Shown in pieces: positions 13,246 to 43,900 of a stretch of 64,000 nucleotides of DNA (position 1 is the stretch's first letter; every line of letters starts with the position of its first letter). A model generated the notes under the pieces. That model ran no database searches and was not told where the DNA came from. It worked only from the letters and a program-made list of their open reading frames with translations. Source of the DNA: Schmidtea polychroa (taxonomy: Eukaryota); the NCBI GenBank assembly GCA_044892525.1, contig CM097886.1:122388001-122452000 (forward strand). The letters run 5' to 3'. The position numbers and the translations under genes are program-made.

Positions 13246-13463
13246 CTTTGTCTAAATAACGATATCATTAACTCAACGTTGTACGCTTATATCTGGTTTA
13301 TTATTTATTTATTTTTACAATTCGTTATAGGAGTTGTTTTAGAAGTTTTACGCTTAAGTTTACCTTTAGTAGATTTGGGGGATTTTTCTACACTACTATA
13401 TAATGTTTTACGGGGTATATATGCCGATATTTACAATTAGTATATACAAAATTATTCGTCTCT

Positions 13464-14852: not shown

Positions 14853-14941
14853 TTCTATAATTATATATATACATATATTCGTTACTGGTACAGTTTCGTA
14901 TTTTTATTTACAGTTATTTACATTGCTATTTTAGGTTATAT

Positions 14942-15325: not shown

Positions 15326-15469
15326 CCCTTATCCAATTTTATTTTTATATTATTTATCCCCATCGTTATATAATATTGATACCGCGGTTATATAAAAATA
15401 TATCATACTGTTATATAAATAAATATTATCTACTTACTTTTTACAATCTATATACAGTCATAATCCTTT

Positions 15470-22498: not shown

Positions 22499-25400
22499 TC
22501 AATTTCTAAATCTGTCTAAAAATTTTGGTTTGTTCTTTTTCAGTTGTGTCCTTGTTGCTTCATCATACATTGTTTTCCGAAATCGTCTACCGACTTCCTC
22601 GTCAGTCCCTTTTATTTTTGTCAGTATTTTTATTAATCGTTTTATTCTGTGTATATCTTTAGAATGACCGTGCAACACCATTGTTTTTGCCAAAAATGGT
22701 AGAAAACCTACTATCAACTTCCAATTTACTTTCTTTTCTTTCTTATAGATATCAAAACACGCTAACATTTGAGTCAATATTACTCTGACAATCTGAATAA
22801 TTAAGATGATTCCCAATATTCCTGCCATCATTTGACCGAACACTAGAAATCTTCCCCACATTGCTTTCATCATGTTTGACGTGGCTTGTTGAAAATGATC
22901 GGGTGACAATAATAGTTCGTAATTGGGACCTGATTGGAAATTCGTTCCCCCAGTTATGGTAACCATATTTGATAGAATGGATTCTCGCCTTGCTGGGAAT
23001 AGTACGTTTAGTCGTGCCGTTTCTAAATCCTCTGCTGAGTACATACCTGCTTTTGACACATCAATTGGTTTGAAATCTTGCTCCGTTGCGAGTTCTATTA
23101 ATCCAAACTTTTTAGGCTCTTGTACTTCGGTTTTTACCGGTAACATTATCCATTTCCCATCGGGTTTTTCATATAACGGTCCGTATGCATTTGAACAGTT
23201 GAAGGTGTTCGGATAAAATCCAATTGGGTTCATAATTCTAGTGACGGGTTGAACGAATCTGTTTTGCCCTTTGTAACTAATTTCCAACTCGTTTGCGCAT
23301 TTCCCTGGTGGTATTGTGGGTTTTCTTGGCAGTCGCGCAAACGTCTTGGTACATGCATATGTATACATTACCTCTCCCACCATTCTACCAAAATGTCCAT
23401 CCGGTAACGGGAGTGATGGCATTGTGTTATCTGGGTGTGTTATTGCGATGGCTAATTTTGTTTTTAGTATCTCTTTATTCAATGAACAGTCATTTTGTAT
23501 AAGATCGTAGTATACTTTTTGCATTGTCGTTTGTCCTCGATGAAATAAAAAGTCCATTTTGTTGTTGGCATAAAGGTACAACTTCACGTCCTCCGTTGAT
23601 ACTTTTCCTACTGCTCGGTCTATTACTTGCCTTGACATGTAGATACCTGCGTAGTTCGTCCGATATACTATGCTGTCACATTTGGTGGTCTCTTTTTCTC
23701 TGATGAATCTCATACCGATATCTGGATCATCTGTAATTAATGCCGTTGGTGTTTTTTGTGTTGTGAGTCTCTTTTCTTTGGGGGATGGTGGAACTGGTTT
23801 CCCATTTCGCATCCTTACGTTTCCATTCTCTTCATCGTCATCTTCGTTTTCGTAAATTTCTCCTTTTACTTCATTGAATAGAGCACTTTTTAACAATTGG
23901 AGTCGGCATTTTTGGGTGTTAGCTTCATATATTATAGTCGAAATTCCCGTTCTACACACGTTTTCCGTAGCTCTGCATGCTGGGTTGGTTTTCATTTGAT
24001 AGTTGTTTGCGTCGAATTGTGCTTCGTATTCCTTCAACTCCAATGTGTAGGACTCAATTACTACTACTCCCGAGATCACTTCTCCTCTGATCGTATATGT
24101 GCCTCCGTTACATGATCCATCAGTTGATTTTACTCGTCCGGCTACATAGATACTTTCCGTCTTGATCATTCCGCTTTGTCCGTGTATTGTTACTCCATCC
24201 CTGATTCTCATCGCTCCGGTTCTAAAAAGCTCTTTACAGTCTTCCCGTTGTATAGGTACTATTTCTTTATCTAATCCAGGTAATATGAGGGTTGAATATG
24301 AGTATTGTCCACAGTAGTATGCCAACACTTTCTTCGATACTACGCATTCTCTAGCTTGCGTCCTAATGAAATCTGATTCTTGGTATACGTGATAGGAGAC
24401 TTTCTTTTTTACTATATCTAATTTATTCGGAGATGCCTGTCTACATTCCTCTATATCTCTCAGGGAGTATCTTTCTCCTATTATTGAATTGTCACAGTCG
24501 TAAATTGTAAATCCAGCTGCTCCACTGGTGCAGAGCATCCATATCATCATGGTCATCATTAGTGAATTAATCGACGCTTTTCTGCTGGCTGGGTCTTTCA
24601 ATGGCAATTCCCATTCCAGTTCGTTTAGCAATTTCTTCAACCGAATTTGCATCGATCTCTCTTGCTCGTTTTTTCGTGGCGCTTGTATGAGTCTTTTCCA
24701 CCCACCGGCACGGATAATATGTGGTTCGATTGTATTTTCAATGATTGTAACGGTCATTTCTACATGATTTGCGAATTGTTTGTTAGGTATTTTCCTTGCT
24801 GCTAATCCCATCAAATTGTACATTAGATACGTTAATACTACTAAATGATGTTCGTCGTCGTTTGCGTTTAAAGTTAATTGTTCAATTACCCTTCTTGTCT
24901 CTTCCCAATCGGTTTTAGTGGTTTTTGTCTTCTCTTTGATTAATTTCGGAATTATTCCGGATATTGTGTTCCATAGCTGTCTGGCATCTACGCTTGCTAC
25001 TTTTCGTTGCCATAACCGTCTCAATTGCGGGTTTGTTATTATTAACATATCCTTTACTAGCTCTCGTATCCATTTTTCACCTCTCTCGATTGTTGGTTGA
25101 GCCTCTTTTAGATCCCATACTATTTTATCCAATTTCTCTAATCTGACTTGTCCTTGTTCCTGTTTCAACTGTTCTCTGGTTTTAAATTCTGGTTTTTCTC
25201 CTTGCTTCTTGGGTCTTCCTTTTGCCCGTTTCTCCATCATTGTTCCAGCTTCTCTTGTCGTTTCATAATTCGGGTTTCTCTCGTTATCTGTTCTTGGCAA
25301 TGAGCTATCGTTGTTTCTCAGCCACTCATTCCATTCGTCTATTATTTTGTCCGTTTGACCTTCTGGTGTTGGTTTCGTCGGTCCTTTTGGTCGTTGGAAT

Positions 25401-27397
25401 TGTTCGTCGGTTTCGGTTTCTGTTGTATTATCGATAATTTCCTCTATGTTCAGCTTATTTGGTTGTTGATAGCTAGTTGACGGTTGGCTTGTTGTCCATA
25501 TTTCGGCTCCTGTCGGCCATCTTACCAGAATTGGTGATCTTTCTCCAGCTCCTTCATCGCTGTCTTCTAATATGATTTCCTCGATTTCCTCGGTTTCATT
25601 CGATTTACTCGCCACTTTGTTAGGGCTTGGTGTACTCAAGCTACCTTTCGTAGTTTTGCTGGATTTGCTCTTCCTTTTAATCGGTTTTCCCAATGTTTCT
25701 GCCATTGTCAATACATTGATCTCCCCCAATCTCATGGGTGTTATTCCGACATCTGCATTATCATCTAACGATTTTCCGAATAGTTGTAGGTGAAATGGAG
25801 TTTCGTATGCTAACTTCTTTTTTAACTCTCTGATCTTTGTTGTTGGATGTACTTTTATATCCTCAATGCTTTTGTCGGGATACTTGACTCGGATACGATA
25901 CCTTTCCTGGGTATCTTGTGCCCATTCTTGGTTTCTCCATTTCCTAATAATTTGTTCTAGCTGTTCTGGGTACCATTCGTTATATTGTCGGTATTCCTCA
26001 ATCGCTTTCGCCATTTCTCTTAGATTGTGGATATTCTCTGATGTCTTTAGGATGATGTTAGCCAATGCTACTACTTGTCGTTTTTGATTTTTTGCTCCCG
26101 TTGCTAAGATATCACCTAATTGTTTATATCTTTCCTTCTCTTCTCGTTCTCGAGCTTCCATCGCTTCTTCGCTGTCCATATCGGCATATTCGCGTTCTTT
26201 CTTTCTCATCGCATGAATATGTCTGGTTTCCGTTTCACTTTCTGACGTAACATCCGTTTCGCTTTCGTCGTCCGATATCGATTCTATTTCGTCCTCTTCG
26301 TATTTTGGAGGTTCATCTTCCTCTTCCTCTGATTCACTTTCTGTCTCACCAATCTCTGTTTCTACGAAAATTCCTTTCCTGACTTCCCACTCTTTATTTT
26401 CCGCATTCCACATCCTTTCCCAGGGAGTTCGTCTGCAAGATCTAGTACTTAGTTTCTTTATTTTTCCTTGTAGTTCCTTTTCCTTTAACCACTGTTGATG
26501 AATTTCAATTATCTCTACTGATTTTTTGTATAGCGTTTTCATCCTGTCTCGTATTTCTTTCTGGTATGTTACATCTCTTGTTCGGAATTCGTCCATGGGC
26601 AATATTCTGATGATTTGATGATTATCCCACATTCCCATTTCACTTAACGAGGTATCGTCTTCGGCCCGTAATATTATTTTGTCGTACATCATGACTACGT
26701 CATCTATCATACCATCACTACTCTCGCTTCGTACCTTTTCCGTTATCTCTTGGTTTATCTTTGTTACTAAGTCATCCACCGTACTCTGATTACTCATCTT
26801 TATTCGTCGTTTCTCCTCGTTTGGTAACCATATGGTTATTTCTAACTTCTGCGGTTGCGTTTCTTTTAATCTTCCATATTTGTGGATCAAATTTATGGTT
26901 CTCCAATCGCTCATCCTGAGCAATTCTGTATCTCGTAATCGGCTCATTAGTTCATGCATATCTGGAGTTCGTCTTGCTATGAGTAAATCCCAGTTATCTT
27001 CGACTTGTTCTTGAATTTGTTTGATTAGTTTATCTAGATTCCGCCTTAAAGTGCATTGTTTTATTTGTTCCAATTTCAGCTTGATATTGAAATCGTATTC
27101 AGCCTTGGCGTCTTTAGCCCATTCATGAACATTAGTTGGTTGCTTCTCTTTATGCAACTTCAATATTTGAGTTTCTCCTGGCCAGATCAATGCATCTATT
27201 AGGTGCATGTCTGGCTTAATTTGTTCTCCTTGGTATTGATATAAATACTCTTTCTTTCTCGAGCTGCCCAAATGTTCTCTTATCCAATCGAAAAGATCGT
27301 CTGTAACTGTATTTTTTATCCATATTCTCTCGAGTCCTTTACTCGTTCCGATTTTTATTACGTAGCGTGTTGTCTCCGCTTGTTTCATTTTTTCCAT
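22499..27397 (-). CDS. env: 1632-aa ORF: N-terminal accessory region (3 ubiquitin-like domains, Bcl-2-like domain), then signal peptide and chuvirus-like envelope glycoprotein with C-terminal TM
   Basis: Hydrophobic leader ending ...SGAAG|FTIYDC (mature start 24511). Cys pattern YDC...YSL.D..EC, YYCG..S, C..L..TG, AG....DG.C.GG.Y, VVV..Y.L resembles chuviral G. TM WGRFLVFGQMMAGILGIILIIQIV. BH2-like IEPHIIRAGGWKRLI at aa 890-904. Confidence 0.82.
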   Translation of the reverse strand: MEKMKQAETTRYVIKIGTSKGLERIWIKNTVTDDLFDWIREHLGSSRKKEYLYQYQGEQIKPDMHLIDALIWPGETQILKLHKEKQPTNVHEWAKDAKAEYDFNIKLKLEQIKQCTLRRNLDKLIKQIQEQVEDNWDLLIARRTPDMHELMSRLRDTELLRMSDWRTINLIHKYGRLKETQPQKLEITIWLPNEEKRRIKMSNQSTVDDLVTKINQEITEKVRSESSDGMIDDVVMMYDKIILRAEDDTSLSEMGMWDNHQIIRILPMDEFRTRDVTYQKEIRDRMKTLYKKSVEIIEIHQQWLKEKELQGKIKKLSTRSCRRTPWERMWNAENKEWEVRKGIFVETEIGETESESEEEEDEPPKYEEDEIESISDDESETDVTSESETETRHIHAMRKKEREYADMDSEEAMEAREREEKERYKQLGDILATGAKNQKRQVVALANIILKTSENIHNLREMAKAIEEYRQYNEWYPEQLEQIIRKWRNQEWAQDTQERYRIRVKYPDKSIEDIKVHPTTKIRELKKKLAYETPFHLQLFGKSLDDNADVGITPMRLGEINVLTMAETLGKPIKRKSKSSKTTKGSLSTPSPNKVASKSNETEEIEEIILEDSDEGAGERSPILVRWPTGAEIWTTSQPSTSYQQPNKLNIEEIIDNTTETETDEQFQRPKGPTKPTPEGQTDKIIDEWNEWLRNNDSSLPRTDNERNPNYETTREAGTMMEKRAKGRPKKQGEKPEFKTREQLKQEQGQVRLEKLDKIVWDLKEAQPTIERGEKWIRELVKDMLIITNPQLRRLWQRKVASVDARQLWNTISGIIPKLIKEKTKTTKTDWEETRRVIEQLTLNANDDEHHLVVLTYLMYNLMGLAARKIPNKQFANHVEMTVTIIENTIEPHIIRAGGWKRLIQAPRKNEQERSMQIRLKKLLNELEWELPLKDPASRKASINSLMMTMMIWMLCTSGAAGFTIYDCDNSIIGERYSLRDIEECRQASPNKLDIVKKKVSYHVYQESDFIRTQARECVVSKKVLAYYCGQYSYSTLILPGLDKEIVPIQREDCKELFRTGAMRIRDGVTIHGQSGMIKTESIYVAGRVKSTDGSCNGGTYTIRGEVISGVVVIESYTLELKEYEAQFDANNYQMKTNPACRATENVCRTGISTIIYEANTQKCRLQLLKSALFNEVKGEIYENEDDDEENGNVRMRNGKPVPPSPKEKRLTTQKTPTALITDDPDIGMRFIREKETTKCDSIVYRTNYAGIYMSRQVIDRAVGKVSTEDVKLYLYANNKMDFLFHRGQTTMQKVYYDLIQNDCSLNKEILKTKLAIAITHPDNTMPSLPLPDGHFGRMVGEVMYTYACTKTFARLPRKPTIPPGKCANELEISYKGQNRFVQPVTRIMNPIGFYPNTFNCSNAYGPLYEKPDGKWIMLPVKTEVQEPKKFGLIELATEQDFKPIDVSKAGMYSAEDLETARLNVLFPARRESILSNMVTITGGTNFQSGPNYELLLSPDHFQQATSNMMKAMWGRFLVFGQMMAGILGIILIIQIVRVILTQMLACFDIYKKEKKVNWKLIVGFLPFLAKTMVLHGHSKDIHRIKRLIKILTKIKGTDEEVGRRFRKTMYDEATRTQLKKNKPKFLDRFRN

Positions 27398-27442
27398 ATA
27401 CTTCTTTATTATCGCTTTCTCCTCGCTTGGTATTAAATCTTT

Positions 27443-29368
27443 TTAGTTTCTTTCCAGTTTCATTATCTTTTGTATGAAGCGTCTGTATGGTATGATGTCA
27501 ATGAAATCCTGGTTTCTTACCACCACTGGAAGTATTTCTTTTACTTGTTTTATCGCCTCTTCTTTTTCCTTTCTCAGTTTCATCTCGATATTCTCATCTT
27601 CACTTTCGCTTGCCACATCGCTTTCACTTTTCTCCTCATCTTCTCCGATCTTTTTCTTTAGTTGTTCGATATTTTCATTTAACTGTAATATTTCTCCACC
27701 AAGGCTACTCACATAATCCTCCTCGTCATCTGTTGACAATACCTTCTTTGTCGTCCTCATCATGTTAATTCGTAAGTTTCTCATTCTTGATACTTTCTTG
27801 AGCTTTTTATTCTCAAATATCGTTAATTCTTCCGATTCTAATTCTTGTACCATTTCATGGGTTAAATGACTAGTTTGTTTCTCGTTTCCGTCATTTATCG
27901 CTTCTGCTTCTGTTTTTGTTTTCTCATGTTCTCTTTCGATCTTATCTTTTATCTTTTTCCAAAATATTTTCTGGATTCTCTGATTTCCCTTTAGTGGTGT
28001 TGTTGGATTTTTCTTTTTATCTTCTGTAACCGTTTCTTTCGGCTTCTCTGGTTCGATCATAGGTACAACTCTTGGATTTTTACCATAATTGTAACAATAT
28101 TGCTCCTTTATCTCTTTTACCATTCTCATCATATTTATTCGTAATGGTTGTTCTTGTCGCTGCTGAATTCGCTCTCGTTTTATTCTCTCTTCCTCAGCTT
28201 GTAGTCTCTGCCATTCTTGTGCATGTTGTTGTACTTCATAATTGTTAAGATTTTCGGTGCTCCTCATCATGCGTATATTCTGAGTTTGTTGTGGTACTTG
28301 TTCTTGTCTCGGTCTCATCATTTGTTGCATCATCTGTTTCATTTGTGAAATTTCTTGCATCACGTTCATTTGCTTTCCTTCACTGGGGTTACTTTGTCGT
28401 TGCGGATTAGGTGCATAATTATTGTTTCGTTGTGGTGGTCGTTGTTGTTGGCCCCTTTCTCGGCAATCTCTTGAGATGTGACCCGGTTGACCACAGTTAA
28501 AACATCCTCTCAATTGACATATATTTTCCGTGTGTCCTCGTCGTCCACACCTATTGCAATTTGCGCTTCGGTAACAATCTCTATCCCAATGTCCTGGTTT
28601 ACCGCATGTTCGGCATTGTTTGTTATCGTTCGTATTTCGTCGATTATTAAAATTATTTCCATTGTTCGAGTTGTTGCGTTCACTGTTATTCCCGTTTGAT
28701 CGTCCTTGCGGTGGTTTGAAAATTTGATGCGCACCTGGTATAAACTGATTCATCTTCGGTTCATGATTGTTGTTATCTCCATTTTCTGTTTTCGCCGTAG
28801 CTGCTGCGATTCTTCCCTCCTCTTGCATGACATTCATTTGTGCCGGGAGGTGTTGATCGCATCTTGTGGCCCAATCTATGGCCTCTTCTAGTGTTTTACA
28901 CATCTGACATCCCACCGAGGCTCTTACCTCTTCCCGGCGTAGTCCTTCTATGAAATAACCAATTAAATTTTCCTCTGGCAGGTTTCCGTTCATGGCCTTC
29001 TTTGCCAATCTTCGCAATTCGCTTGCGTATAACGTTATTGATTCATTTGCTCTTTGTTTTCTACTCGCTAATTCTCCTAGGGCTTGATTTATTGGTTTGC
29101 TGGCCCCGAATGTTTTTCTCAAAAATGTTTTGATGTTTTCCCAATTGTCTAATTTCGTATTTCTTTCTTTTGCTTCTAGATACACTTCGAGTGCGCTATC
29201 GCACAAAAACAGAGGCATTCGTTTACTAATTGCTTCCGCTGTCCATCCGCACACATCGATATAGACTTCAAAATTTGTTATGAACGTTGCCAACTTGTTC
29301 GCATTCCCGTTAAACGGTTCGCCTCTAAATTTTTCTTTATACTCGTCGGTTTTTACCACATTCATCAT
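27443..29368 (-). CDS. gag: Gag: retrotransposon capsid domain, three CCHC zinc knuckles, long Q/K/E-rich extension (641 aa)
   Basis: Capsid-like FITNFE...WENIKTFLRKTF...Q..NESITLY..ELRRLA...FIEGL; knuckles CRTCGKPGHWDRDC, CNRCGRRGHTENIC, CFNCGQPGHISRDC. Confidence 0.92.
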   Translation of the reverse strand: MMNVVKTDEYKEKFRGEPFNGNANKLATFITNFEVYIDVCGWTAEAISKRMPLFLCDSALEVYLEAKERNTKLDNWENIKTFLRKTFGASKPINQALGELASRKQRANESITLYASELRRLAKKAMNGNLPEENLIGYFIEGLRREEVRASVGCQMCKTLEEAIDWATRCDQHLPAQMNVMQEEGRIAAATAKTENGDNNNHEPKMNQFIPGAHQIFKPPQGRSNGNNSERNNSNNGNNFNNRRNTNDNKQCRTCGKPGHWDRDCYRSANCNRCGRRGHTENICQLRGCFNCGQPGHISRDCRERGQQQRPPQRNNNYAPNPQRQSNPSEGKQMNVMQEISQMKQMMQQMMRPRQEQVPQQTQNIRMMRSTENLNNYEVQQHAQEWQRLQAEEERIKRERIQQRQEQPLRINMMRMVKEIKEQYCYNYGKNPRVVPMIEPEKPKETVTEDKKKNPTTPLKGNQRIQKIFWKKIKDKIEREHEKTKTEAEAINDGNEKQTSHLTHEMVQELESEELTIFENKKLKKVSRMRNLRINMMRTTKKVLSTDDEEDYVSSLGGEILQLNENIEQLKKKIGEDEEKSESDVASESEDENIEMKLRKEKEEAIKQVKEILPVVVRNQDFIDIIPYRRFIQKIMKLERN

Positions 29369-30640
29369 GACTGGTTCTTGTAACTCTATTGTTTCTTTTA
29401 AATTTTCCAGCGGTGTCGCTAAATTATGGACGGATAATTCTTCTGTTGACCCGGTTACGTTGTTTGTTATATCGGATAGGCTTTCTCTGCTTCTAGATCG
29501 ACTAGGGGTGTATCCGAGGTTTTCTTGGTCAAATGTTGGTACTTGATTTGTTCTTTTTGCTCCTTGTGATCTTCCTCTTTGCTGTTTTATGGATCGTCCT
29601 CTTCTGAGCTGTTCTAGTTCGTCTCCTGAAATTAATACGTCTCTTGACTTACTTGAGGATCTGAGATTTAGTTTCTCCGTGATTTCTTCTTACGCCTCCT
29701 TATCGTCTCTTATGGATTTCTCGGCAATTATCGGCTGCTGACTTGAGCGAATTCGGTTTTGTCGGTGTTCCGAGTCCTTGGCAATTGGTTGTTAGCGTTA
29801 TGAGACGTCTTCCGTTCTTGGAATCTTCGGGTTGTGTTACTCCTACTGAGCGGGTTCTGGATTGGTTATTTCTAGTTGGTCGTTAATTTCTTCGAATTCC
29901 TTTGTGCAAGTTCTGGATTGGCTTGATTGACTGGATTGGTTTGGTATCTAAAATGAAAAAATGATCTCGTGTTGCATCTGCTCACACGACTTCATCATTC
30001 TTTCTTCAACATTCAAACACAGACACCGTTTAGGGCCTCTGTTATACTTCCCCTTATTTCCCCATACAATTTCTCGTGGATTATAGTTACCCATCAACCC
30101 ATAGTTTTCGTCGATTTTAAATTATCTATTTAGGGTAGTAATAATTATCTATATGGTCGTATGAATCATCTATAATTATCATTTATAATATCGATAGGTC
30201 GTTGTCAGTTACTGCTTATCACCCCCCCATATTCTCTTAATCCTTTTACGCGATTCCGCTATTTTACTTAATCTTTCGTCTCTGTTCCCCTTTACTCGGT
30301 TCTACTCTGAACCAAAAAAAAATCGGATTCGTTTATCCGGTTTAAACCAAAATTCTGTAGACTTTTGTCTACTTACTTGGGATCCCCTTTAATTAATTAA
30401 TTACCTTCCTTTTTACTCGTCATTTATTCCCACTTATTCTCTACTTTTACTATCTCCTCAATTCATTTTCCTTTTCTGATTCTCCTTTTCTACTAAAAGG
30501 GTTTTACTTTCATCTTCTACGAGCTCGTTTAATCCTTTCTAAATTCGACTTCTCGTATCCCAATTCAATTCGTTTCTAGCTAGCTTAATATTCTATCTCA
30601 TTATCAACTTAAATATTATCCAATCATTTTCTAGGCCTTT

Positions 30641-31070
30641 ACGACTGGCTGGCACTTTTCAACAGCTCAATCTTCTTCCTTCTGACCGGTTGGACTATTC
30701 GACAACTCGATCTTACGACTGGCTGGCACTATTCAACAGCTCAATCTTCTTCCTTCTGACCGGTTGGACTATTCGACAACTCGATCTTACGACTGGCTGG
30801 CACTATTCAACAGCTCAATCTTCTTCCTTCTGACCGGTTGGACTATTCGACAACTCGATCTTACGACTGGCTGGCACTATTCAACAGCTCAATCTTCTTC
30901 CTCTCCAAACTGGCTGGACTTTTCACAGCTCAGTTTTTAATTTTTTTTCCTGACCGGCTGGACTTCTCGACAGCTCGGCCTTAATATCTCCCGACTGGCT
31001 GGACTTTTCACAGCTCAGTTTCAATTTCCCTGGCCGGCGGGACTATTCAACAGCTCAGCCTTAATATCTT
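30641..31070. repeat. Tandem array in the 5' leader: 3.5 copies of a 74-bp unit (a dimer of ~37-bp subunits) plus 4 degenerate subunits
   Basis: acgactggct starts at 30641, 30715, 30789 and 30863. The core GACYGGYTGG(C)ACTWTTC(R)ACARCTC occurs 11 times. Confidence 0.95.
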
Positions 31071-31642
31071 CGACTCTGCATGCTTCTATCTTTTCTTTAC
31101 CTTTATTCTAGACTGTCATCTCTCCTTTTATTTTTACTTTTTATTTGTCGATCTAATCTGTGCCGCTTGAGAATGTTTCCCCTTTCCCCCCTTGCTCAAA
31201 ACGCAAAACGATCGCATTGATCCATTTCTACATTGGTATGGTGATCAGTCATACCGCAGAAACTTTTCAATATTCGCGATGGTACCTCGCCTTACATCTC
31301 TTACTCGGGGTGATCGGTTATCCCTTCCCAACCGGTTTTCGTGTATCGTACCTCCCGAAGGTGGCTCGGTTTATTCCCCCTTTACTCCTATGTTGGGACT
31401 AGCTCCACTTTATTTTATTTGTTCAAATTAAATTTATAGATGCTCTCTCTCTATGGTGAAAATTATCATAAAGTTACTGAATTCACAATAAAATGAACAC
31501 GCAAAACATTCTATTCATTAGTTGGCTTAAATCACATGCAATATACAAATTTACTAGAAAATTGTTGATACATCAATTAAACATAAAGGATTTAGTCAAA
31601 TCGTCAATCAGATCAATTCTTTCACCGAGTGCTGCTCGCGTG

Positions 31643-32122
31643 TTAACTGAAGTAAATCGTGTGCTTCTCCTTTATTGCACATACACATAAAGAACAATGC
31701 GTTAAACTGACGGCGCATTCGTCGCAATGGCTAAGGTGTCCACAAGGTAGCATTAGAATTCTGGCAGGTCGCGTCTTACAAATGTTACAAGTTCTCAAGG
31801 CCGCTGCTTTTTCTATTATCGAGGTTCGTATTCTCTGAGATAGAGTTTTTACTTGTTCGCGTATTCTCACATATTCGAGGTTCAGAGCGGGGTCGTCGAG
31901 TCGTTGCTGCATCCATTGGTAATGGACAGACAAGTCGGTGTCGGTATTTGTTGACCCCAATCTGTCGGTTAGAAAGTTTTGTTTGGATATCAGCGGTGCG
32001 TTGTGGCGTTGTTGCTCTAGGGTTTCTATTTGTTGCAGTTTTTCTCTTAACGTCTTTATGGAATCGTTTTCTATGTCGACGAACCGGCTTAGTCGTTGTA
32101 GATGTTTCCTAGCTTCTGACAT
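31643..32122 (-). CDS. LTR-encoded coiled-coil plus C-terminal IAP-type C3HC4 RING protein (no BIR domain)
   Basis: CNIC......ILMLPCGH..HCDEC...L..CSLC...I....IYFS* follows the IAP/zf-C3HC4_3 RING spacing and terminal aromatic tail. The acceptor-like ttttgtag lies 2 nt before the ATG. Confidence 0.85.
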   Translation of the reverse strand: MSEARKHLQRLSRFVDIENDSIKTLREKLQQIETLEQQRHNAPLISKQNFLTDRLGSTNTDTDLSVHYQWMQQRLDDPALNLEYVRIREQVKTLSQRIRTSIIEKAAALRTCNICKTRPARILMLPCGHLSHCDECAVSLTHCSLCVCAIKEKHTIYFS

Positions 32123-32708
32123 ATCTACAAAAGTATGTTGTCATTACTCGGTCTCACTTATAAAAATAAAAATAATATTATCGTGTTATAATCAATGTTC
32201 GTTTGGCTTTGTTCGCTATTGTTTCTAGTTTATGTATTTTATTCAATCTCTAATAATTCTTTTTTAATTTAATTCATTTAAAATTAAACAAAATTAGTCA
32301 ATTCCCATTTTCTCTTCTCTTCATATTCAATCACATTCATTCAAACTTATTTAGGTTCGTTTTTGTTCATAGCATGTTCTATTTTACGCAAAGACAGTTC
32401 GCATCATCATCTTAATACACTATAATATCAATTCATTTCAGTCCCGATTCCCTTTTTTTATTATAATTAATTAAATTGTTAGTCTAACACATCGTAATAC
32501 AGTAATAGGCAATCAAACAATTCGAAATCACAATCCCGGCTGAGCCCCCAAAAATCATGTTGGCGTATGTGGGGAAAGAGAAAATATGCCCACCTGATCA
32601 TCATACATCCCAAGTACTCTCTTCCGCTCCGATACTTCCCATACATACTCCAAAATGATCAAATACATATTCCCACGTATGAGCCCGTGGGGGTGTTCCA
32701 CGTTGGTG

Positions 32709-32810
32709 CTGCTCACACGGGTTGGAAAAGGTTAGCAGGTGAGCCCCTGCCTTAGGACTACTCCTAACCCTTTCTCGGTTCGGGTTCCATGGTGCCATAG
32801 AAGGTCTTAC
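32709..32810 (-). ncRNA. Conserved ~102-nt structured, intron-like element (GTAAG...CTCAC/CTAAC...CAG) in the LTR
   Basis: Homologues at 9731-9832, 44883-44984, 49984-50086, 56811-56915, 57193-57301 and 62429-62531. The hairpin around the GCTCAC loop shows compensatory changes. Confidence 0.5.
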
Positions 32811-33100
32811 CCGTTTCTTCGCTCCTAATTCAGTCCAACCCTGGTCCAAAGGGACGACATTTGCGCTCGTACTATGTCTCCAAGAGCACCTTTTACTCAA
32901 ATCAACCACAGCAAATCACACATACCATGAAAAAAAAAATCAAAGACTTCAAACAGTTGTATTAAATCGAAACATAAAAATACATTCACCATTAATTAAA
33001 TAAGAACAAAACATCAAAGGTCATGTACAGGATAACGTCAACTTCTCCGAGTTCCTTCATACCGCACAAAGATTGAGACAAATGAGAAAAAAGGAATTCA

Positions 33101-33865
33101 TTACGAAAACACTTCTCCTTCTGCGATCATTTCGTCAATGTCGACGGGCAACCGGCGATCTTCGAGGAATTTGATGCCGTCGGCCGGAACTAACCGAAAT
33201 ACTTCTTTCGTAGGGATAGAATGGGTGATTGTAATTTCCTTGATCGTCGATTTGGCTGCAGATAACGATGCCTCGAGCGCGGCCATGGCGTTTCTGCGCT
33301 TCTGATTTTTCTCTGAGCGCGTCGGTCTCTTACGCTTTCGAGGTGGAAGAGTGGCTCCTGCTGGAGGCCGGGTGAGTGGCGACGCGAGGACTGGAGCCAA
33401 GATAGGGTCCGATGGACCGCCAGCCATAGGCCGATAGCCAGAAAGAACTGGGGCGGGAATTGGTGGCAATTGTAGGCCGTGCCCCTTGCAACTGATGGTT
33501 GATGAGGTTTCAGTGGATTGATGGTGTTCCGGGAACACGTTAGTCCCATCTTGTATTGGGTATTCGCGAACTCGCTTCGCTATCTCGGATTCCGAATATA
33601 CTTTGTGCAGTGCCTCTGATTGGGCTTTTATGGTTAGCCTCTGGCATCTGCTCTCCTCGAGGAGACTGTCACGGCAGTGCTCCAAACGTAGAATTTTTCT
33701 CTTCTCTTCCTTCATTTGTGGCGGGGAGAACCACGTGCCTTCGTAAAGGTCGATTCTTTTCTTTAAAGCCCCGATGTATAGATGAAGCTGCGCGATATCT
33801 GCGTTTTTATCTGCGCAGGAGAAACATGGGCGAAGAGTTTTCTCAGCAGTTGTTGGAGTAGTCAT
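33101..33865 (-). CDS. LTR-encoded hypothetical protein (254 aa; CxxC, coiled coil, Pro-rich linker, basic NLS-like motif)
   Basis: Intact ORF homologous to 8672-9433. Nine of the 22 codons of LHLYIGALKKRIDLYEGTWFSP differ synonymously between copies, with no amino-acid change. Confidence 0.85.
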   Translation of the reverse strand: MTTPTTAEKTLRPCFSCADKNADIAQLHLYIGALKKRIDLYEGTWFSPPQMKEEKRKILRLEHCRDSLLEESRCQRLTIKAQSEALHKVYSESEIAKRVREYPIQDGTNVFPEHHQSTETSSTISCKGHGLQLPPIPAPVLSGYRPMAGGPSDPILAPVLASPLTRPPAGATLPPRKRKRPTRSEKNQKRRNAMAALEASLSAAKSTIKEITITHSIPTKEVFRLVPADGIKFLEDRRLPVDIDEMIAEGEVFS

Positions 33866-36284
33866 CTAAAGAATGAGAAGCCCTTTATTTACATCATTAA
33901 AATCCTTTCTACTATTTGTTTTCTTTTTATCGTGAGCTTTATCCTGCCACATGTGCATACAATCAGGATTGTCCCCCACATCCATACCTTTGACCTCACT
34001 TAACTCATCCAAACCGTAAACCTTCAAATCAACTCATCATATCGTTCGTAAGGAAGAAAAAAATGAGAACCATCACACGTTATTTCTCTACCCATATTGA
34101 TATTGTACCTAGGTTCCTGGGTCGACAGTTATCATCTAATCGCAATCAGTTACTCCTTACCACTAATATATTTTTCCACTTTTATTTATTATGACCCATT
34201 GAAAGTGTGTCTACTCCCTTGCTATTATGGCTTATTGAGTTATGCCTGCTTTAATTTAAAAGAAGTAGTTCCATGCTGTTGATGCATTTTTGCGCTGTGT
34301 TAGGTTAAAACGAATGTGTTAAAAATTATTGTAAGTATTAATTTCCCCCATAAATTATAATTTAATTATTTAAATTTTCGCATTTTATGTTGTCATAACG
34401 ACGCATATTAGTATGTAGTTGTGTACTGGTTTCAGACTCTACCTGATGTGCGCTAATGTGTATTATTTAGTTTTACTCAATTATCGCTGTCCTCTCTTAG
34501 CAAATTCTAGACATTGTGTCGGTTAGTGTACTTGATCTCGTCGCTTATTTATGCATGCCTACGGACACATGCTACTATGACGCAATGATGACGTCGACTC
34601 ACTCACGTCCCATGTATTAGTGGATTTATCTGTGTGTGGGTTTGGGTCTGCTTATCTCAGTTATAACATTATTAGCAGATGGGCTAGACGAACGGAAGAT
34701 AAGGAGTCAGACTTATAGAAATAACGATGGTTATGATTTCAAGATGGCCTAAATCTGTTATCGGGTAGCAAATGGATTTAATTTCTATCTCTCTCGTGAA
34801 TGTTGACTATTCTCAAAAACCTAATCGTTTCATCGACTTGGCGCAAATCGTTCCACAATCGAACCGCTGGAATATTTTATCTACGCTACTTGCCTCTCTG
34901 CAATAGTCGTTTCTCGATCAGATGGAAAATTTATTGATAATTTGTTCGGAATGGTCGATGAAAATTTCCTTTAGGACTGTAGTAAGTGCTTATGATTAAT
35001 TAGAACTTTGCTGTTTACTTTCCTGTCAGGACGAATCCTTATCGATGACAGTAGCTAATCGAAGGTTGATAACTAAGTCTCCTACTCGTCAAATAACATA
35101 TCACCGCGATGGGTTGAATCGCTAACGTTCTCTTAATTTATCAATTCTTGGAAATATAGAATGCTCCAGATTTTTATCATTCATCAAGAAAACGAAAATG
35201 GACGTTAGAATTATCAGTGAGGTTCGAGAATTTCATTACCCTCAAGGATAGTCGGTGTTCATATTCTGACGAAAAGAAGTCACCTAGCTCTAAATTGAAT
35301 ATGGCCGAACTCAAACTCGGATTAAATATCGAAAAATGTCGTCAATCTCCTAGAATTTTCAGTCAGCACGTTGTCGGCATCGAAACAGTATCGCTCAGAA
35401 GTTTCCTCAATCGAAAGTTTGCGACGGCTAATTCTACAGATAGCACTCGATGAAAGGATCATTGACTCGATTCGTTTTCTCTCACAGGGTTTCCTCACCC
35501 CTCACAACCCACCCAAGGACAGTACGCATTTCTGCCCACTGCCCTTGGACCGTCGTGAAGGACAACTCGACCCGACTTATCTCAAATCCTCCTCCAATAA
35601 ATGTGCAATTAATAAATTCATATATGATCAAACAAATATGGGAATAATGAAATTAAAAGAAAAATCAAATAAATAAATGTTTACCTGGCGGCCACGCCAG
35701 CCGGATTCCGGGTATGATGACTCTTGCTAACGTAGGTTTTTACATTCATTTAGCAATCATTGTAATACTAATATCCATGTAGATACTTGGCTGGTTCGGT
35801 CAGTGCAATTTCTGAGTATTCATATTCATAAGCTCTCTCTGAAAATGCATACGTAATTTAGCCGCATCATACCCGAGCTCCAGAGGACGTCGTCGCCAGC
35901 ATCATAGAGAGAAAGCAACATCTTTTGGTTTTAAATATAAATTTTATTGAAACATAAAACGTCTTTTGATATTAAATTCATAATAAACATTAAAAATATC
36001 ATACTAAAATTCAAAACATAATTTACCAAAATTCTCCGAAGGTGTTAGGATTGAAATCAAAGTCTTGTAAATTTTTCCTTAGTTAGCCTGGTTCTTCTCA
36101 ACTGGATTCGATCTCGACTATTATCTGCCTCTAAGTAATATCTGTTATGTCCAAGTATGAATATTGTTCGTAAGTCTGTGCTCGTGAGTGGTTCCTAGCT
36201 TAGTCCTGTAGAGTTTCGGGTTAGAATGATAATTTTAAATAAATTTTACCTGTAGAGTTTCGGGTTAGAATGATACTCTACAGA

Positions 36285-36330
36285 GTTTTGTTGCTCTTTA
36301 TATATATTTTTCCGTCCAATCAGGACACAC
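36285..36330 (-). promoter_or_regulatory. Putative LTR promoter (ATTGG/CCAAT box, then TATA), ~480 bp inside the 5' end of LTR A
   Basis: gtgtcctgattggacgg...tatatataaagag. The same layout occurs in copy B (6310-6340), C (54661-54696), D (58315-58352) and E (59264-59288). Confidence 0.6.
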
Positions 36331-38664
36331 CTTGCTTGTAATTTTGTTATTTATTATTATTTTATGTTTTTTCTTATCGTAGTATATTATATTTTAATGA
36401 CCCTACCTATTTCTATTATTGTTTTATTTATTTTCCTATTTTTTATTATTTTTCTCCTATTTTTCTGTGGTTTTATTGCTATTTTATTGTAACTTCATTT
36501 TTTGTTTTAATTAACCTTATGGATGATTTTATTTTTATTTTGTTTTCCTTTAGTTTTCGTTTGTTTTTCTTAAATTTTGTGCCATTTTATTTCTCTTTTA
36601 CTGTTGTGCTCATTGGGTGCCTTCCCTTTTGTCTTATTTCCCCTTTACAGGTTTTGTTATTTTATTTAGTTATTCTTGTTTCTTTATGGATGTTTAATTT
36701 GTTTCTTCCTATGTTTCTCGTAATTTTTATATGTTTTTATTTTATTTACTCTATCTCTTCCTGGGTTCGTTTTTCCAACACCTTCAGAGCTTGGCCCAAC
36801 AAAAAGTAGTTTGTAGGTGTAGTCTTTTGGGTGTTAAAATTACCAGAATTTGTAACAAAAATACTAAAAGCAGACAAACAAAGGTAAATTAAATAAGAAA
36901 CATTAGAAAAATGAGTACAGAAAGGAGAAAACAATTGTGCGGTAGCGAGGGAAATGCGAATAGTGAAAATGCTGACCGGAAGACTGTAAAAGTAAAAGAT
37001 TTTACCCACACGTAACCATCAGTAAATAACAAAATAAAGACTCTGTCAATTTGAAATTATTATATGTGTAGTCCTTTAGTCATATTGCTGGGTTAAAAAC
37101 CAAGGACAGTTTTATATCCTGTAACCTTTCTTGTTCCCACCGAAAGGCCACTAAGATGACCACACAACATGGAAAAAGCAATAAGAACCAATCGGAACCA
37201 ATTTTTCTACCCCTAGATTTTTATTTCTATTAGATCTACCATAATTTAGTGTAAGCACATCGGAAATTTTATGTTAGAAGATGAGTGAACATTAAAAATC
37301 TTAAGGCTAAAATGCTACATGATAGTGAAAGAAAAATATAGGGTAAACATACAAATACAGAACAGGAGTGATTCGAGAACTTGAAGATGATTTCAGAACA
37401 GTTTTTAACCTATTAACAATTTGATGTGATCCATTAACTTATTTATTTGTGATACAAGATTGTAATTATATTTATTTATTGGTTCTTGGTGATATTATAA
37501 TAAAGTAAACCCTCACACGCAAAAATGGAAAAATATCTGGATATATGTCAGAGATAAGGCTGACATAGAGAAAAGGAAAATGGAAAACTGAATCTGTCGC
37601 CAGTGCCGCAAATGAAACAGACTATATAAAACAGAACAGTTGACCGAGAAATCAGAACAAAAAGTAAAACAAAAACAGAACGAAATCAGAGACGAAAAGA
37701 GTAAAAAAGGAGACACAAAAACAGAGTGAAACGAGAAGTGACGAGAATAGTTTGTAAAATTGAACATAAAGTGGAAGTGGAGAAAATAAATTGTGTGGTC
37801 AAAGCAAATAGAACAATCGATCAACGTATCCTGTAATTAAATAGTTGATGGATAGTGATTATTGTTGTGATTACAGAAAGGGCTATTCTTCACGTAGTGT
37901 CGAAATAAGCTCTATGTGATAAATTGGTTTATAATTAATTGGTTGTAATTGAAATTTGTACAATCCCGTGTGGATATTAATAAAGCCTATCGTGTTCGAG
38001 AGTGTTGAATTGTGAATTAATAAACACGCTTTGGAGTCAAATATTATCACCAACCCAATAACCCAACAGTATTATTTATTTGTTATTATTATATTTTATT
38101 AATTTTAAGACAGATTGGAGTGCATGTTATTATTTTTAGACATATTTGTTCAAACAGGTTAGCAATAAGTGCATTTATTGGAAGATTGTTTATTTTATTT
38201 TTTTGAAAATTTTAATTGAACCATTAAAAATTTAATTTTGATTTTTACAATAATTTTCATGTTGATATTGAAGATTGTAAAATGTATTTATATAAACTAT
38301 TCATATTTATAGTATTTATATTTAATCATTTGAATGTTGTTGGTGAATTATGAACTCAATGCGCGTCTGTGTGCGCGTTGTATTGTGTGATGGGTTTGTG
38401 TGCGCACACAGACGCGAGCAATGTCATTTTTTGGGTTGGGTTGTTGGTGTGTCGCGTCTGTGTGCGCTTTTCTTTTCTTTGTTTTAGGCTGTGTGCGCAC
38501 ACAGACGCGAGCAAGAAGTATGGAAATATTTATTAATTAGTTTGGTTGTAATTTTTTTCTAATTTTAGAGTTAGAATTTTATCGATTCTTGAATGTGAAT
38601 GGATTTAGAGAGTTGTTAATGGTATCGATTTCGGTTTTGGTTTTCTTATGATTTTTCGGATAAA

Positions 38665-39210
38665 ATGGAAGAAATGGAAATGGGAAATACTACCAACGAA
38701 ACTGATGGTTCCTTTTTTATGACCTCAAGAGATCCTGATAATGTTAATGGTGTGTTTGGCCAAGTAATATTAAATTTATTTGGTGGATTGATTTCCGTTG
38801 GTATTCGATGCAATAAATGTGATGTAGTAGTTACACAAAGGAAGGTTCCAGATAAAATGATTGAGAAGAGTTCAGCTACAAGATTGTTTAATATTACTGA
38901 AAGTACTGGAGGTGTTATGACTGGTATGATCCCTGATTATCGATCTCAAGTATGTCGTGCACAAATGGAAGCAGCTCGATTTAGATATAAACATGGATAT
39001 GAAATGCTTTGTGACATAATATGTCGTTCTATTGCGGATATTAAGCAGCTTTCTACCCAATCAACTGAGATGCGACCATTAGGTTGTTCAATGATGGCAT
39101 TATCTTATGGTATTGACATGGACAAATTGTTATTATTCAAAAATAAAATTATTATTCGTGATCTTGAATTTAAACATGAACAGTTGTGGTATGTTGAAAT
39201 TAAAGGTTGA
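38665..39210 (+). pseudogene. PSMA6: Duplicate proteasome alpha-6 fragment
   Basis: Same as 3514-4059 apart from one L/V change. Confidence 0.88.
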
Positions 39211-40978
39211 AATTGTTCGAAATATTATTTGGATTTGAATTAATTCCCCAGAAATTAATTATGAAAATACGTTGTTTAAATAATATATAATTATTCACGA
39301 CTTTGAATTTATTAATATCTAAAATTAAGACGAATCCCAACATGGCGACCACGCTAATGCTGCAGTTTATCAGACTAAAAACATTCGAAGAAATACAAAA
39401 TCGATTGGTAAAATATGATATTAAAAAAGAAATTGAAATTGAAAACATTGCTTCGATGCAACATGTAAAGTAAATTATGTTAAAGTAGCGATGTTGAATG
39501 ATGGACAAACATGGAACCAAAGAAATCCATATCACTGTCAAAGGAATGAAAGAATCGAACGAAGTTGGACGATGGGACGACCGGAAACAAATACTCAAAG
39601 ACCAGGAAATCGAAATGAGTGGGAAAAGATCAGAAATCAAGGACATTTTCGAGAAAGACAACAGTGGCCCGCGAGACATTTTAACGAATCGATTAAAAGA
39701 AATATTTATCCAAACCAAGATAATCGCATGCGAAGGTGTTGGGCTTGTAGAGAAGAAGGTCATCTAAGATCAGAATGCCCAAATGTAATTTTAACTGTAG
39801 GGGGTATTTCAAAACCGATAGAATTCTGTTAATCGAGGAGTTATTCCAAATATAATGGGGGGGAATAAATTTTTTAATGGAATTTAGTATATATTTACAA
39901 AGAACCGATAATGAGAAATATGAGATAAGTTATATTGAACAGAAGAAAAAGGATTTTAAAAAAATGGAAAAAGAAGACAAAGAAATCGAGAAATTAATTG
40001 AAGAATATGAAACAGTATTTATGAAACATAAATGGGACATTGGTAAAACAGAAATAGTACAACATAAGTTAAATACGACAGGACCTCCAATTGTTATTAA
40101 TCCTAGACGTCAACCAGTACACCTCTCATCGAAAATAGAAGAAAATATTAAAGAGATGGAAAAGAATGGTATTATAAAGAAATGCGAATCACCTTGGAAT
40201 TCGCCACTGGTATCTATTAAAAAGAAAGACAAAAATGAGATAAGGGTTTGCTTAGACTTTCGAGCATTAAATTTAGTAACAGAGCGACCTATTTTCCAAT
40301 ACCAAATACAGAAGAAATGATGGACGCTCTAAATGGATCGATATTTTTCACAACACTGGATTTAGGCAGTGCAAATTACTAAGTGGAGTTAACTGAAGAT
40401 TCGAAAAAGAAAACGGCTTTCTCTACAAAGAATGATCAATATTACTACAATCGTATGCCAGTTGGGATAGCAACGGCTCCTGCTACTTTCCAGAAATTAA
40501 TAAACAAAGTGCTTCGATCACTAAATTGGAAAGAAGCTGTAGTGTACATGGACGACATCCAAATATTTTCAAGAACTAAAGAGAAACACATAAAAAGAGT
40601 AAAAAATGTTCTAGACAGATTTAAAACAGCTGGATTAAAGTTGAGTCGAGAGAAATGTCACTTTTTGAAATGTGAAACTAAGTTTTTAGGCCATTTCATA
40701 AATAAAGATGGTATAAGAACGGAGGATCATAAAATTGACGCAAAAAAACAGTTTGAAAAACCAACATGTTTAAGGAGGTTGAGGAGTTTTTTGGGACTTA
40801 CGAAGGTTCATTGAAAATTATACAAAGTTTGCTAAGAACTTGGAGAAACTATGTGGGAGTAACCAAAAAAAAATTAATATGGACAGATGAATGTGAAATA
40901 GCGTTTCAAGGTATGAAAGAACAATTAATGAGAGCTCAAATACTGGGTTTCCCGGATTTTAAAAAGAATTTATATTAG

Positions 40979-43900
40979 TGTTGGGCCAAGCTTCGAGAGT
41001 ATTGCAAATCAGGTTAAGGATGAATAAAGGGGGTAAAATAAATTTCACGAAAAGCGCGAAAAATAAAAGAACAAATAAAATTAGATGAACATAACAGGAA
41101 TAAAGGGAATAAAAATAACTAATGAAAATAATAAAAAATGAAAAATAAGATGAAAAAGAAAATAACGCACCACACATAATAGCAGAAGGAAATAAAATAA
41201 TAAATTTAAGGAAAATAAACCAGAAATTAGGAAATAAAATAAAAATAAATCATTATCAACTAAATACATAAACTAATTAAAATCAAAAATTATACTACAA
41301 CCAAAAAACAATAAAGTCACAGGAAAAACACGAGGGAAATATTAAAAAATAGAAAAATAAATAAAATAATAAGAAAAAAATAAGAAAAGTTATTAAAATA
41401 CCCCATATTACATTAAAAAACATAAAAACAATAATAAATAATAATATTACACACCAGTCGTGTCCTGATTGGACGAAAAATAATATAAAAGAAATGAAAA
41501 ATATCTGTAGAGTACCATTTAACCAAACTGCTCTACAAGTAAAAATTTCTTTATTGAACTTACCATTTAACCAAACTGCTCTACAGATCTACGATTCATA
41601 CAGGAACCACTTATCAAACGTCATTGAACAGATTTACAGGGACTACATTTAGGAAAATTATTCAGATAGCGATCGGAATTTAGGCAGAATAACAGTACAC
41701 TTAACTTGGAGAAAAAATCTAGACCTTATTTTCAGTACTCTCGGAGAAAATTATAGTAAGTAAGATGAATGTGTTTGATTTATGATTGATTTACGTAACC
41801 ATGATTAAGTAACATATTTTATTTTTAATAAAAATTTATTGATTACAAAGATGTTCTCTCTCTATGGCTGGCGACGACGTTGTTTGGGAATCGGACATGA
41901 TGCGGAGACTCGGATGCCTTTTGCAAGGAAATGCTTGGGAGCGAACGAAAATAAACGAAGATGTTGAATCAAGTATTTGAAGGAAATTAATCTCACTGGG
42001 AATGAAATGGTAATATGCGATGAATATCACGATGTAGCATCATGTTCGAGATACAGACGGCGTGGTCGCCAGGTAACTAATTTCTCTAGCAATATTAATC
42101 CATTTTGTAAACTATATGATTTATTTTTTCGTTTGATAATCGTTCATGATATTGAGGTTTGGAGAGATAAAATCGTCCTTCCTGACGGTCCAAGAATGGT
42201 GGCAGAGATGTATGCCGTTCTTGGGTGAGTCAGGAAGGGTGAGGACATCTGGTAGACGATGACAATGGAATTGGGAGGAACCTTTTCGCCGGGTGAGATC
42301 ATTTACTCTCGAGGATTCTCTTCATAAAGGCATAATAGTCATTCATCTCGGTAGAAGGAGAAATACCATAGGAAGTGCTAGGAAAAACTACTTACGACCA
42401 AGCATGTCTGCGAATTCAATCGTTTTCCAATGAGTTTCGTCACTTTTCGACGCTGATGGACGAGCTATCACTAAAACCATTTGAATGATAGAAGACTAGG
42501 TTTGGCTTGAAAATATCCATGAGGATCGTCGTTGCTTTCTTAAGAGTAAAATCCTTTAGAGGTGCACACCGCTAAGACGTTAGCTGGTAGATCGATCACT
42601 CCAATTTTCCTTTTATCCGATTAGAGAGAAATCGGTAAACAAACGTCGAAAAACTGTCATCATCGTCAACTCGTTCGCCTAGTGTAAATACGCGCGACAG
42701 TCTTGAGAAAAACCTGGAATCGACCGATCGTTGGAAATTTATCCTACAATCTGATTCTCCTACAATCGAACGGTAGTTATTAGATAAGCCATTTTCTAAA
42801 AATACCCAGTTTTAGATTAACGGATAACAACTTCTTCATAAAGGCGTTCATCGCCGACTATCGGAGTAAATATGGCTAATAGGAGAACAATCACGGAGTT
42901 GGGGTTGAGTCGATCAACGTGGTGAATATCCAAAAATTAGAACATTGATATCATAATTCACATATAGAGTTTTGCTTTCATCCACATAAAATCCAACAAC
43001 AATATTACGTGCGACGGCAGATAATTTTGCTAATACACACCTGTACATCTACTAACTCCCAGACGAAGTGTAAAGTGATGACGTCATTTAGGACCACACT
43101 GAAACAATAGGTAGTAAACTGAGTAACGATGTTACGACAAGAATCGGATAGGGAAAATCTCTTACTAGCAGATTTTGTTTCCCACTACGATTGCATAGGG
43201 TCTAACTATAATAAATTCCAGCATGCACTTTCGAATCATAGCGAAGAACAGCGGTTTTCTATGACTACTCACACGGCGGTAAATTAAATTAGATTATTTC
43301 ACTATTAAATATTTAATATAACTAGAATTTTCCTTACGATTTAAAAAGTGCCCATCTAATTCAACACCAGACACGTCGAGCGATAATCATAAAATTTCTT
43401 GGGATTTAAATAACATACAATTTCCCGTAAGCTACATAGTTGAATAATCACCATATAACTAATGCAAGGATGATGTTAATGATGATAAATGATTTTTAAA
43501 TTTTTCGAAAAACATGCAGTTTGCCTGAATTAGGAGATAAATAAAAGAAGTATTTATCAAGTTTCCAATAGTCAGAATATTGCTAATACAGCGAATATAC
43601 GCTTGTTATGGGTCCCGCTCCTTTTCCCTAGCTTGTATGATTTGCGTTGAGTGAACAGGTTCGTGGTGGTAAATAATATTCCGTATGTTTACAATCCGTC
43701 GAAGCTTTTCTGAGGGTCGTCGAGCTATATGTCGAGGGTGTTACCATGATTTCACGAGAGATCCGTCAACGAATGCACAAATAATTTTCTGGTAAACTTA
43801 ATAGGAACCTTCTTTATCTTTAGATGACTGCACCGATCAAATCAGGAAAGGATTTGCGCCCATGCTTCTCGTGCTCGGACAAAAACGAAGATATTAGGAA

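Follow-up and report, generated by a model that had tools for sequence, protein, structure and literature searches.

The question raised by this locus is what kind of RNA is formed by a short element that recurs in the long terminal repeats (LTRs) of a 64,000-nt stretch of the Schmidtea polychroa genome, referred to here as the window. The first-pass annotation had described an element of about 102 nt, running from GTAAG to CAG, as a covarying RNA of conserved length, and had offered a regulated intron as its lead idea, beside a packaging or dimerisation signal and a catalytic RNA. On the position, ends and lengths of the individual copies this account was accurate. Copy A occupies 32810-32709 of the minus strand, is 102 nt long and has the GTAAG start and CAG end. 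The lengths given for copies A (102), B (102), C (105), D (109, with ATAAG), E (103) and F (103) all hold, and YACCAAC directly follows the CAG position in every copy except F. The statement that the element exists in every LTR copy is nearly true, the exception being a fragment at about 63022-63075 that has the 3' module alone. The LTR-end fragment to which it belongs (63022-63150, plus strand) is 91% identical to copy C, with module 3, as defined below, present and modules 1 and 2 missing.

Copy B occurs twice in the window, with starts at 9731 and 44883 and a length of 102 nt in each case. A covariance model of the larger fold places copy B at 9719-9888 of the plus strand (138.6 bits; LTR end at 9977) and its identical duplicate at 44871-45040, copy C at 56799-56974 (plus strand, 121.4 bits), copy D, the ATAAG variant, at 57139-57313 (minus strand, 126.8 bits), and copy E at 62417-62586 (plus strand, 133.4 bits), B to E being training sequences of the model. 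Copy F, in which module 3 is decayed, is found at 49972-50145 (plus strand, 80.8 bits) within a 956-bp solo LTR (49230-50185) flanked by a 4-bp target-site duplication. No copy was found by the model in the internal element region of the window (12418-32140) or in loci L063, L126 and L130. Across the 781-Mb genome, exact matches numbered 3,821 for the 5' motif and 4,225 for the core, against 0 and 7 for the respective reversed-pattern controls. An abundance of about 4,000 genome copies is far beyond chance. Among 30 core-anchored loci, 25 have GTAAG and 2 have GTAGG. Outside the host genome, 0 viral contigs matched, and a single metagenome match of 13.8 bits, within an apparent bacterial coding sequence, was taken as chance.

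The LTR carrying copy A is the 5' LTR of a giant element, delimited by comparison with a sister copy to 32558-36801 on the minus strand (4,244 nt, TGTTGG to CCAACA, target-site duplication TTTT). Its internal region (12418-32140, minus strand) contains a RING ORF, gag with CCHC knuckles, a chuvirus-like fusion glycoprotein, reverse transcriptase, RNase H and integrase, ankyrin repeats, a TRAF/MATH ORF and a coiled-coil ORF. Pfam matches were obtained for gag (PF03732, retrotrans_gag, and PF00098, CCHC knuckles), for the glycoprotein between gag and pol (PF24664, E 4e-72, 22499-27442), and for the reverse transcriptase, RNase H, integrase, ankyrin and MATH/TRAF domains. Among the 13 ORFs scanned, Pfam gave no hit to BCL2-like or BIR motifs at E 0.01. 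In the window copy the polyprotein frame is broken; in a sister copy a single frame of 3,138 aa runs from gag to integrase, and sister copies span about 26 kb from LTR to LTR. This organization matches the description of the planarian Burro/GYPSM1 elements, including the place of the fusion protein (PMC6431247), membership being judged by architecture.

The LTR itself encodes a 254-aa ORF (33101-33865, minus strand) with an Arg/Lys-rich patch, no Pfam family and a U-rich TAG directly before its ATG, for which tblastn homologues were found in 25 of 38 sources. All four accessory ORFs that were checked, at 33865, 32122, 14852 and 13245 on the minus strand, are preceded by a U-rich YAG no more than 6 nt from the ATG, compared with a base rate of 117 among 573 ATGs, and the same arrangement recurs before the RING ORF of a diverged sister family at 41% identity. 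The pattern suggests subgenomic splicing in the style of complex retroviruses; with acceptors before all four ORFs, some donor is likely to be needed.

Several other features of this element and its relatives were observed. The 10.8-kb upstream flank (1650-12445) is duplicated at 99.94% identity in front of the 3' LTR (36802-47597), so that the element appears to have 15-kb LTRs. The duplicate replaces about 2.1 kb present at that place in a sister copy, holds solo LTR B within another gypsy RNase H relic, and is likely the result of recent conversion or duplication. The duplicated LTR-flank DNA also includes, at 3469-4059 and 38620-39210 (plus strand), part of an ORF that encodes a proteasome-subunit domain (PF00227, E 7e-22). 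An abundant 13.9-kb family (L143/L144, G000:C1:5728807-5744374), with 1.6-kb LTRs and a leader of about 9 kb, keeps both the fold and the primer-binding site. In the stretches examined it has a gag-like ORF only, with no pol and no LTR ORF, and a 3' pattern drawn from it has 1,608 genome sites; this family is likely a non-autonomous satellite.

For the analysis of structure, 80 distinct copies were collected, 7 were set aside because module 3 was missing or rearranged, and the remainder were clustered at 88% identity to give an alignment (A1) of 39. In the composition of A1, copy F was restored, L112 stands in place of L110, and five other set-aside copies were moved to A2. The clustered copies are related, with a mean identity of 62% and an effective number of 22. 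In an unbiased mutual-information scan of the 39 copies, Watson-Crick pairs make up most of the top hits. The seven helices recovered are paired in 89.6% of cells, with compensation in 28 of 39 base pairs, and their covariation score of 0.515 compares with 0.218 after shuffling (0 of 500 shuffles as high), all slid-partner controls scoring 0.145 or less. A second set of 33 further distinct copies, fitted to the model and including close kin, is 90.9% paired and scores 0.424 against 0.182. Since G-U pairs exceed A-C oppositions by 183 to 53, the folding strand is the sense RNA of the element. Single-sequence folding of this strand gave weak z-scores of -1.9 to +0.2, and the case for the fold therefore rests on covariation. 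The covarying helices extend from 32813 to 32673, past both the GT and the AG ends. The element is a real, strongly selected RNA structure of about 140 nt, kept by compensatory change and larger than first reported.

The fold is composed of three modules, given here for copy A on the minus strand. Module 1 (32790-32813) is a hairpin of helices P1 and P2; it has GUAA as its internal loop, a variable, bulged base at +6 and a UUCUA(N)N terminal loop. P1 joins nucleotides -3 to -1 with +19 to +21, the donor-like GUAAG at 32810 lies within the module, and the top covarying pair of the whole scan links the -1 base to the base 19 nt inside (z 11.5; CG in 25 and GC in 9 of the 39 copies). P1 is paired in 88% of cells and P2 in 97%. 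Module 2 (32724-32776), defined by covariation and RNAalifold, consists of a long variable stem, P3 (89-91% paired, 10 of 11 pairs compensated), a near-invariant internal loop GAGU/CACCUG, the 6-bp stem P4, AGUNNU/RNNGCU (95% paired, 3 of 6 compensated), and a variable hexaloop. Module 3 (32673-32721) is formed by stem P5 (84% paired, 8 of 10 compensated), an A(G/U)YACCAA bulge that contains the CAG at 32709, and hairpin P6 (89% paired, 5 of 6 compensated), which is capped by GNRA in one clade. For the remaining LTR end (32558-32672), single-sequence folds of 20 copies predict a long stem of variable sequence closing on the terminal CCAACA. A possible 3-bp contact between loops 1 and 2 is 96.6% paired and nearly invariant (37 of 500 shuffles).

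The proposal of a structured, covarying RNA was thus borne out, though by stems other than those named. The stem around GCTCAC, to which compensatory changes had been ascribed, does not covary in the 39 copies: it is 71.6% paired against 72.0% in shuffles and scores 0.184 against 0.187, with 287 of 500 shuffles as high, and its bases are part of the P4 stem and the internal loop of module 2. The suggested comparison with Rfam (release 15) gave 0 matches in the window at gathering score and 0 matches over 32500-32950 at E up to 10; in 8 other loci only unrelated hits were obtained, and the motif core had none. At L046:2720-2780 the mir-753 precursor family was matched below threshold (52 bits, gathering score 62), which agrees with a planarian-type host.

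The idea of a regulated, structured spliceosomal intron running from GTAAG to CAG has some observations in its favour. GT and AG ends are seen in all six window copies but D, the length stays within 102-109 nt in 28 of 30 core-anchored loci, and words such as CTAAC and CTCAC look like branch points. However, the fixed length arises because the stems set it, and the claim that each copy ends in CAG does not survive a wider sample, the acceptor CAG being present in just 23 of 39 copies (AG absent in 16) and replaced by CA(A/C/T) at 1,179 genome sites. AG is lost even in both LTRs of the element L120/L121, which bears a primer-binding site and whose LTRs are 97.7% identical. An intron spliced from genomic RNA would be expected to leave intron-less retrotransposed copies, but in the two family types probed, 0 joined-exon copies stand against 1,608 and 247 copies in the intact form. 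Nor is the unit bounded by GT and AG, since the covarying helices run from 32813 to 32673 across both proposed splice sites, and module 3 contains the CAG. In contigs of five sequencing runs, whose RNA status was guessed, none of the joints listed was a GT..AG joint at the motif, and a positive-control junction was likewise absent; run X1 covers the presumed promoter region as DNA would, so that these data weigh neither for nor against splicing. The intron reading is already largely refuted and is given almost no chance of being correct.

The antisense strand also resembles an intron. The stretch 32739-32800 (plus strand) has the look of a textbook intron of 62 nt, CAG|GTGAG..CTAAC..TAG, since CUCACCUG is complementary to a donor. 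This likeness is probably a by-product, although the antisense strand may give rise to a spliced RNA, or CUCACCUG may act as a U1-like anti-donor.

Immediately after the LTR, on the minus strand, come a 7-nt spacer (32557-32551) and an 18-nt primer-binding site (PBS, 32550-32533) with perfect complementarity to the 3' end of the host tRNA-Pro(TGG), the two together occupying 32533-32557. The GTAAG of copy A is 253 nt from the LTR end; in PBS-bearing copies of three families this distance is 234-265 nt, and three LTR families have an identical spacer and PBS. The spacer (32551-32557, minus strand) is invariant and separates the terminal CA of the LTR from the PBS. Spacers between LTR and PBS are usually 0-3 nt, and a 7-nt spacer may involve unusually long processing of the cDNA end. 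The LTR end plus spacer, CCAACATG, echoes the module 3 motif. Within the linker between modules 1 and 2, the heptamer GAACCCG (32781-32787, minus strand) is perfectly complementary to the host tRNA-Pro in its TpsiC arm and is a candidate primer-activation-like site; the perfect heptamer exists in 14 of 39 copies and is replaced throughout one clade. The genome has 2,196 matches to the tRNA-Pro 3'-end pattern, and the tRNA-Pro(TGG) genes themselves form a long 475-bp tandem array (L132, G000:C1:130.90-130.95 Mb).

Upstream of the fold, AATAAA is found 125-175 nt before GTAAG in 15 of 39 copies, with 0-3 in other 50-nt bins; shuffles gave a mean of 2.4 and a maximum of 8 in 2,000, the interval having been picked after inspection of the histogram and the copies being related. 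Copy A has only the variant AATACA (32958-32963, minus strand), a putative poly(A) signal 153 nt upstream of GTAAG and followed by U- and GU-rich tracts, while AATAAA stands at that distance in many sister families. In the gag-only type, 0 of 6 copies have a signal at -175 to -125. The AATAAA cluster implies that the fold likely lies in U5, the poly(A) site being deduced from the hexamer; if R extends further, the fold would be in R. With the signal upstream, transcripts would have to run on through the 5' LTR in order to contain the fold.

Taken together, the reading preferred here is that the three-module fold, in roughly the final 250 bases of the LTR before the tRNA-Pro PBS and likely in U5, serves as a cis mark that singles out full-length RNA for packaging and for initiation of reverse transcription. 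From the sequence comparisons above, its probability is put at roughly 0.58. The poly(A) signal about 150 nt upstream would end both the message of the LTR ORF and the transcript at the 3' LTR, so that only RNA reading through the 5' LTR would have the fold. The variable stems would act as scaffolds presenting the fixed loops GUAA, UUCUA, GAGU/CACCUG and ACCAA to a partner common to all families, of which Gag/nucleocapsid is the likeliest; in some families the primer tRNA would be a second. GUAAG, half-buried in the P1/P2 hairpin, may double as a U1 site or donor, which is compatible with packaging. A fold that is confined to full-length RNA, stands at a constant spacing from the PBS and persists in an abundant family showing no pol and no LTR ORF behaves as a cis signal read by a shared partner. 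The sense strand, the position, the helices, the near-invariant loops and the retention in gag-only elements all favour this reading. Counting against it are the presence of the heptamer in only 14 of 39 copies, the 0 of 6 gag-only copies with a poly(A) signal, and the failure to see, by eye, a conserved palindromic dimerisation loop. Retroviral packaging cores, moreover, are mostly located downstream of the PBS, which also counts against it. The near-invariant loops would fit a catalytic or a host-protein-binding RNA as well. For contacts between U5 and tRNA beyond the PBS, there is precedent in PMC11251516 and PMC5371799.

Among the rivals, the main job of module 1 might instead be that of a U1 snRNP site or a major splice donor inside the LTR, a reading judged unlikely as the main role, though U1-type poly(A) control is plausible as an additional one. 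In the 5' LTR, binding of U1 to GUAAG would silence the poly(A) site some 130 nt further upstream; alternatively, the donor would be joined to the acceptors of the accessory ORFs, thereby removing modules 2 and 3 and the PBS from subgenomic RNAs. The covarying hairpin would tune access of U1. Like a donor, the site has positions +1 to +5 fixed and +6 free to vary; copy A matches the donor consensus at 7 of 9 positions; and GTAAG is kept not only in 25 of the 30 core-anchored loci but also in 16 of 20 loci that have lost the AG (14 by script, 2 by eye). The AATAAA cluster of 15 of 39 copies at 125-175 nt is comparable with HIV-1, whose donor is 195 nt downstream of the signal; in foamy viruses, a donor carried by both LTRs is gated by RNA structure (PMC3694450 for both). 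The YAG words before all four checked accessory ORFs would supply acceptors. Against this, the -1 base is C in 25 of 39 copies and is base-paired, and predicted folds with and without the PBS showed no uniform change across 8 copies. GUAAG is present in both LTRs, so that a switch between the 5' and 3' copies would be needed, and the gag-only family keeps GUAAG with no upstream signal (0 of 6). Furthermore, from the LTR start to gag there are 17 donor-like sites that score as well or better, and the acceptors could be served by these upstream donors.

A response element of the Rex/Rev type, bound by the Arg/Lys-rich LTR protein and acting in export of unspliced RNA or as a 3'-end switch, is improbable. 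The basic-patch ORF does end about 290 nt upstream of the motif and has homologues in 25 of 38 sources, and according to PMC3694450 the Rex element of HTLV-1 is a large LTR structure linked to polyadenylation. Yet the LTR ORF has diverged to 32-40% identity while the loops are unchanged, and it is missing in cis from 13 of 38 sources, where supply in trans would be possible. Even less probable is an undescribed self-cleaving ribozyme cutting LTR-to-LTR unit RNAs, as occurs by self-cleavage in retrozyme-like elements. Near-invariant loops on variable covarying stems, the possible 3-bp loop-loop contact (96.6% paired) and the GNRA-capped P6 of one clade would suit such an RNA. The 3-bp contact, however, does not covary beyond shuffles (37 of 500), Rfam gave no match at thresholds as loose as E 10, and the element has the usual LTR ends along with target-site duplications and a poly(A)-like signal. 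Cleavage between R and an intact PBS would break off synthesis of the minus-strand strong-stop DNA and prevent normal strand transfer; this, with the missing Rfam match, makes a ribozyme unlikely. The consensus motifs of hammerhead, HDV-like, twister, twister-sister, pistol and hairpin ribozymes were compared by eye and rejected, only short word likenesses being seen and the topologies misfitting. A broader scheme, considered rather unlikely, would combine several of these roles: Burro-like elements may have moved a whole retrovirus-style leader, with a structure-gated U1/donor hairpin, tRNA contacts and a packaging signal, into U5 of both LTRs, where one fold would decide between premature polyadenylation, subgenomic splicing and packaging. 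This would be a new layout of LTR poly(A) control and the first in the Ty3/gypsy lineage.

Cis-acting RNA signals of animal gypsy elements have been little mapped. No description of this RNA was found in the literature searched, a scope that did not take in the main Burro1 paper (Lee et al. 2026), Grohme et al. 2018 or supplements. Burro elements, which are large and have an env-like gene, are reported to affect planarian stem cells (PMC13465017, citing Lee et al. 2026). At stake is how these elements pass their own 5' poly(A) site and select genomic RNA. The thousands of natural variants define the fold, and its helices and fixed loops are directly testable.

Compared with known systems, the element of the window shares with Burro/GYPSM1, as presented in the accessible text of PMC6431247, the CCHC gag, the fusion glycoprotein between gag and pol, reverse transcriptase, RNase H and integrase, the ankyrin repeats and the MATH/TRAF domain, and, in sister copies, a span of about 26 kb between the outer LTR ends. 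That text covers proteins and sizes and has no LTR RNA structure; the window copy additionally differs in its interrupted polyprotein frame and its 10.8-kb duplicated flank. Among retroelement ribozymes, the hammerheads of Penelope/Terminon elements and retrozymes (PMC6431247) and the HDV-like ribozymes of R2 (PMC3774820) are likewise repeat-borne RNAs with fixed loops on variable stems, but the fold described here matches no Rfam ribozyme model and adjoins an intact PBS.

Likenesses are also found in retroviral U5 and leader signals. The HIV-1 primer activation signal (PAS), A-rich loop and packaging leader and the predicted PAS of HTLV-1 are structured RNAs just upstream of the PBS (PMC11251516). 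The tRNA-Pro primer is as in HTLV-1, and the heptamer complementary to the TpsiC arm, which exists in some of the planarian families only, resembles the HIV-1 PAS (PMC11251516). Extended primer-tRNA contacts are also described for Ty1 and Ty3 (PMC5371799). Unlike retroviral U5 signals, the present fold has no sequence or Rfam match, forms part of a structured region of about 250 nt with fixed motifs 110-255 nt from the LTR end, has a heptamer that is not universal, and is followed by a 7-nt spacer between the LTR end and the PBS. With control of poly(A) sites by the major splice donor and U1 in HIV-1 and foamy viruses (PMC3694450 and PMC12789967), the element shares a donor consensus set in a hairpin near AATAAA, at 125-175 nt as against 195 nt in HIV-1, and as in foamy viruses the donor-like site is present in both LTRs (PMC3694450). 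The HIV donor, on the other hand, is outside the LTR and the foamy virus donor is upstream of the signal, in R, whereas here the site would be downstream of the signal and inside the LTR, a layout absent from the lists in the portion of PMC3694450 consulted. If the donor-like hairpin controls poly(A) read-through, it would represent one more layout beside the retroviral ones; if it is only a U5 replication signal, the structure would be of a kind to be expected, though the element that carries it is unusual.
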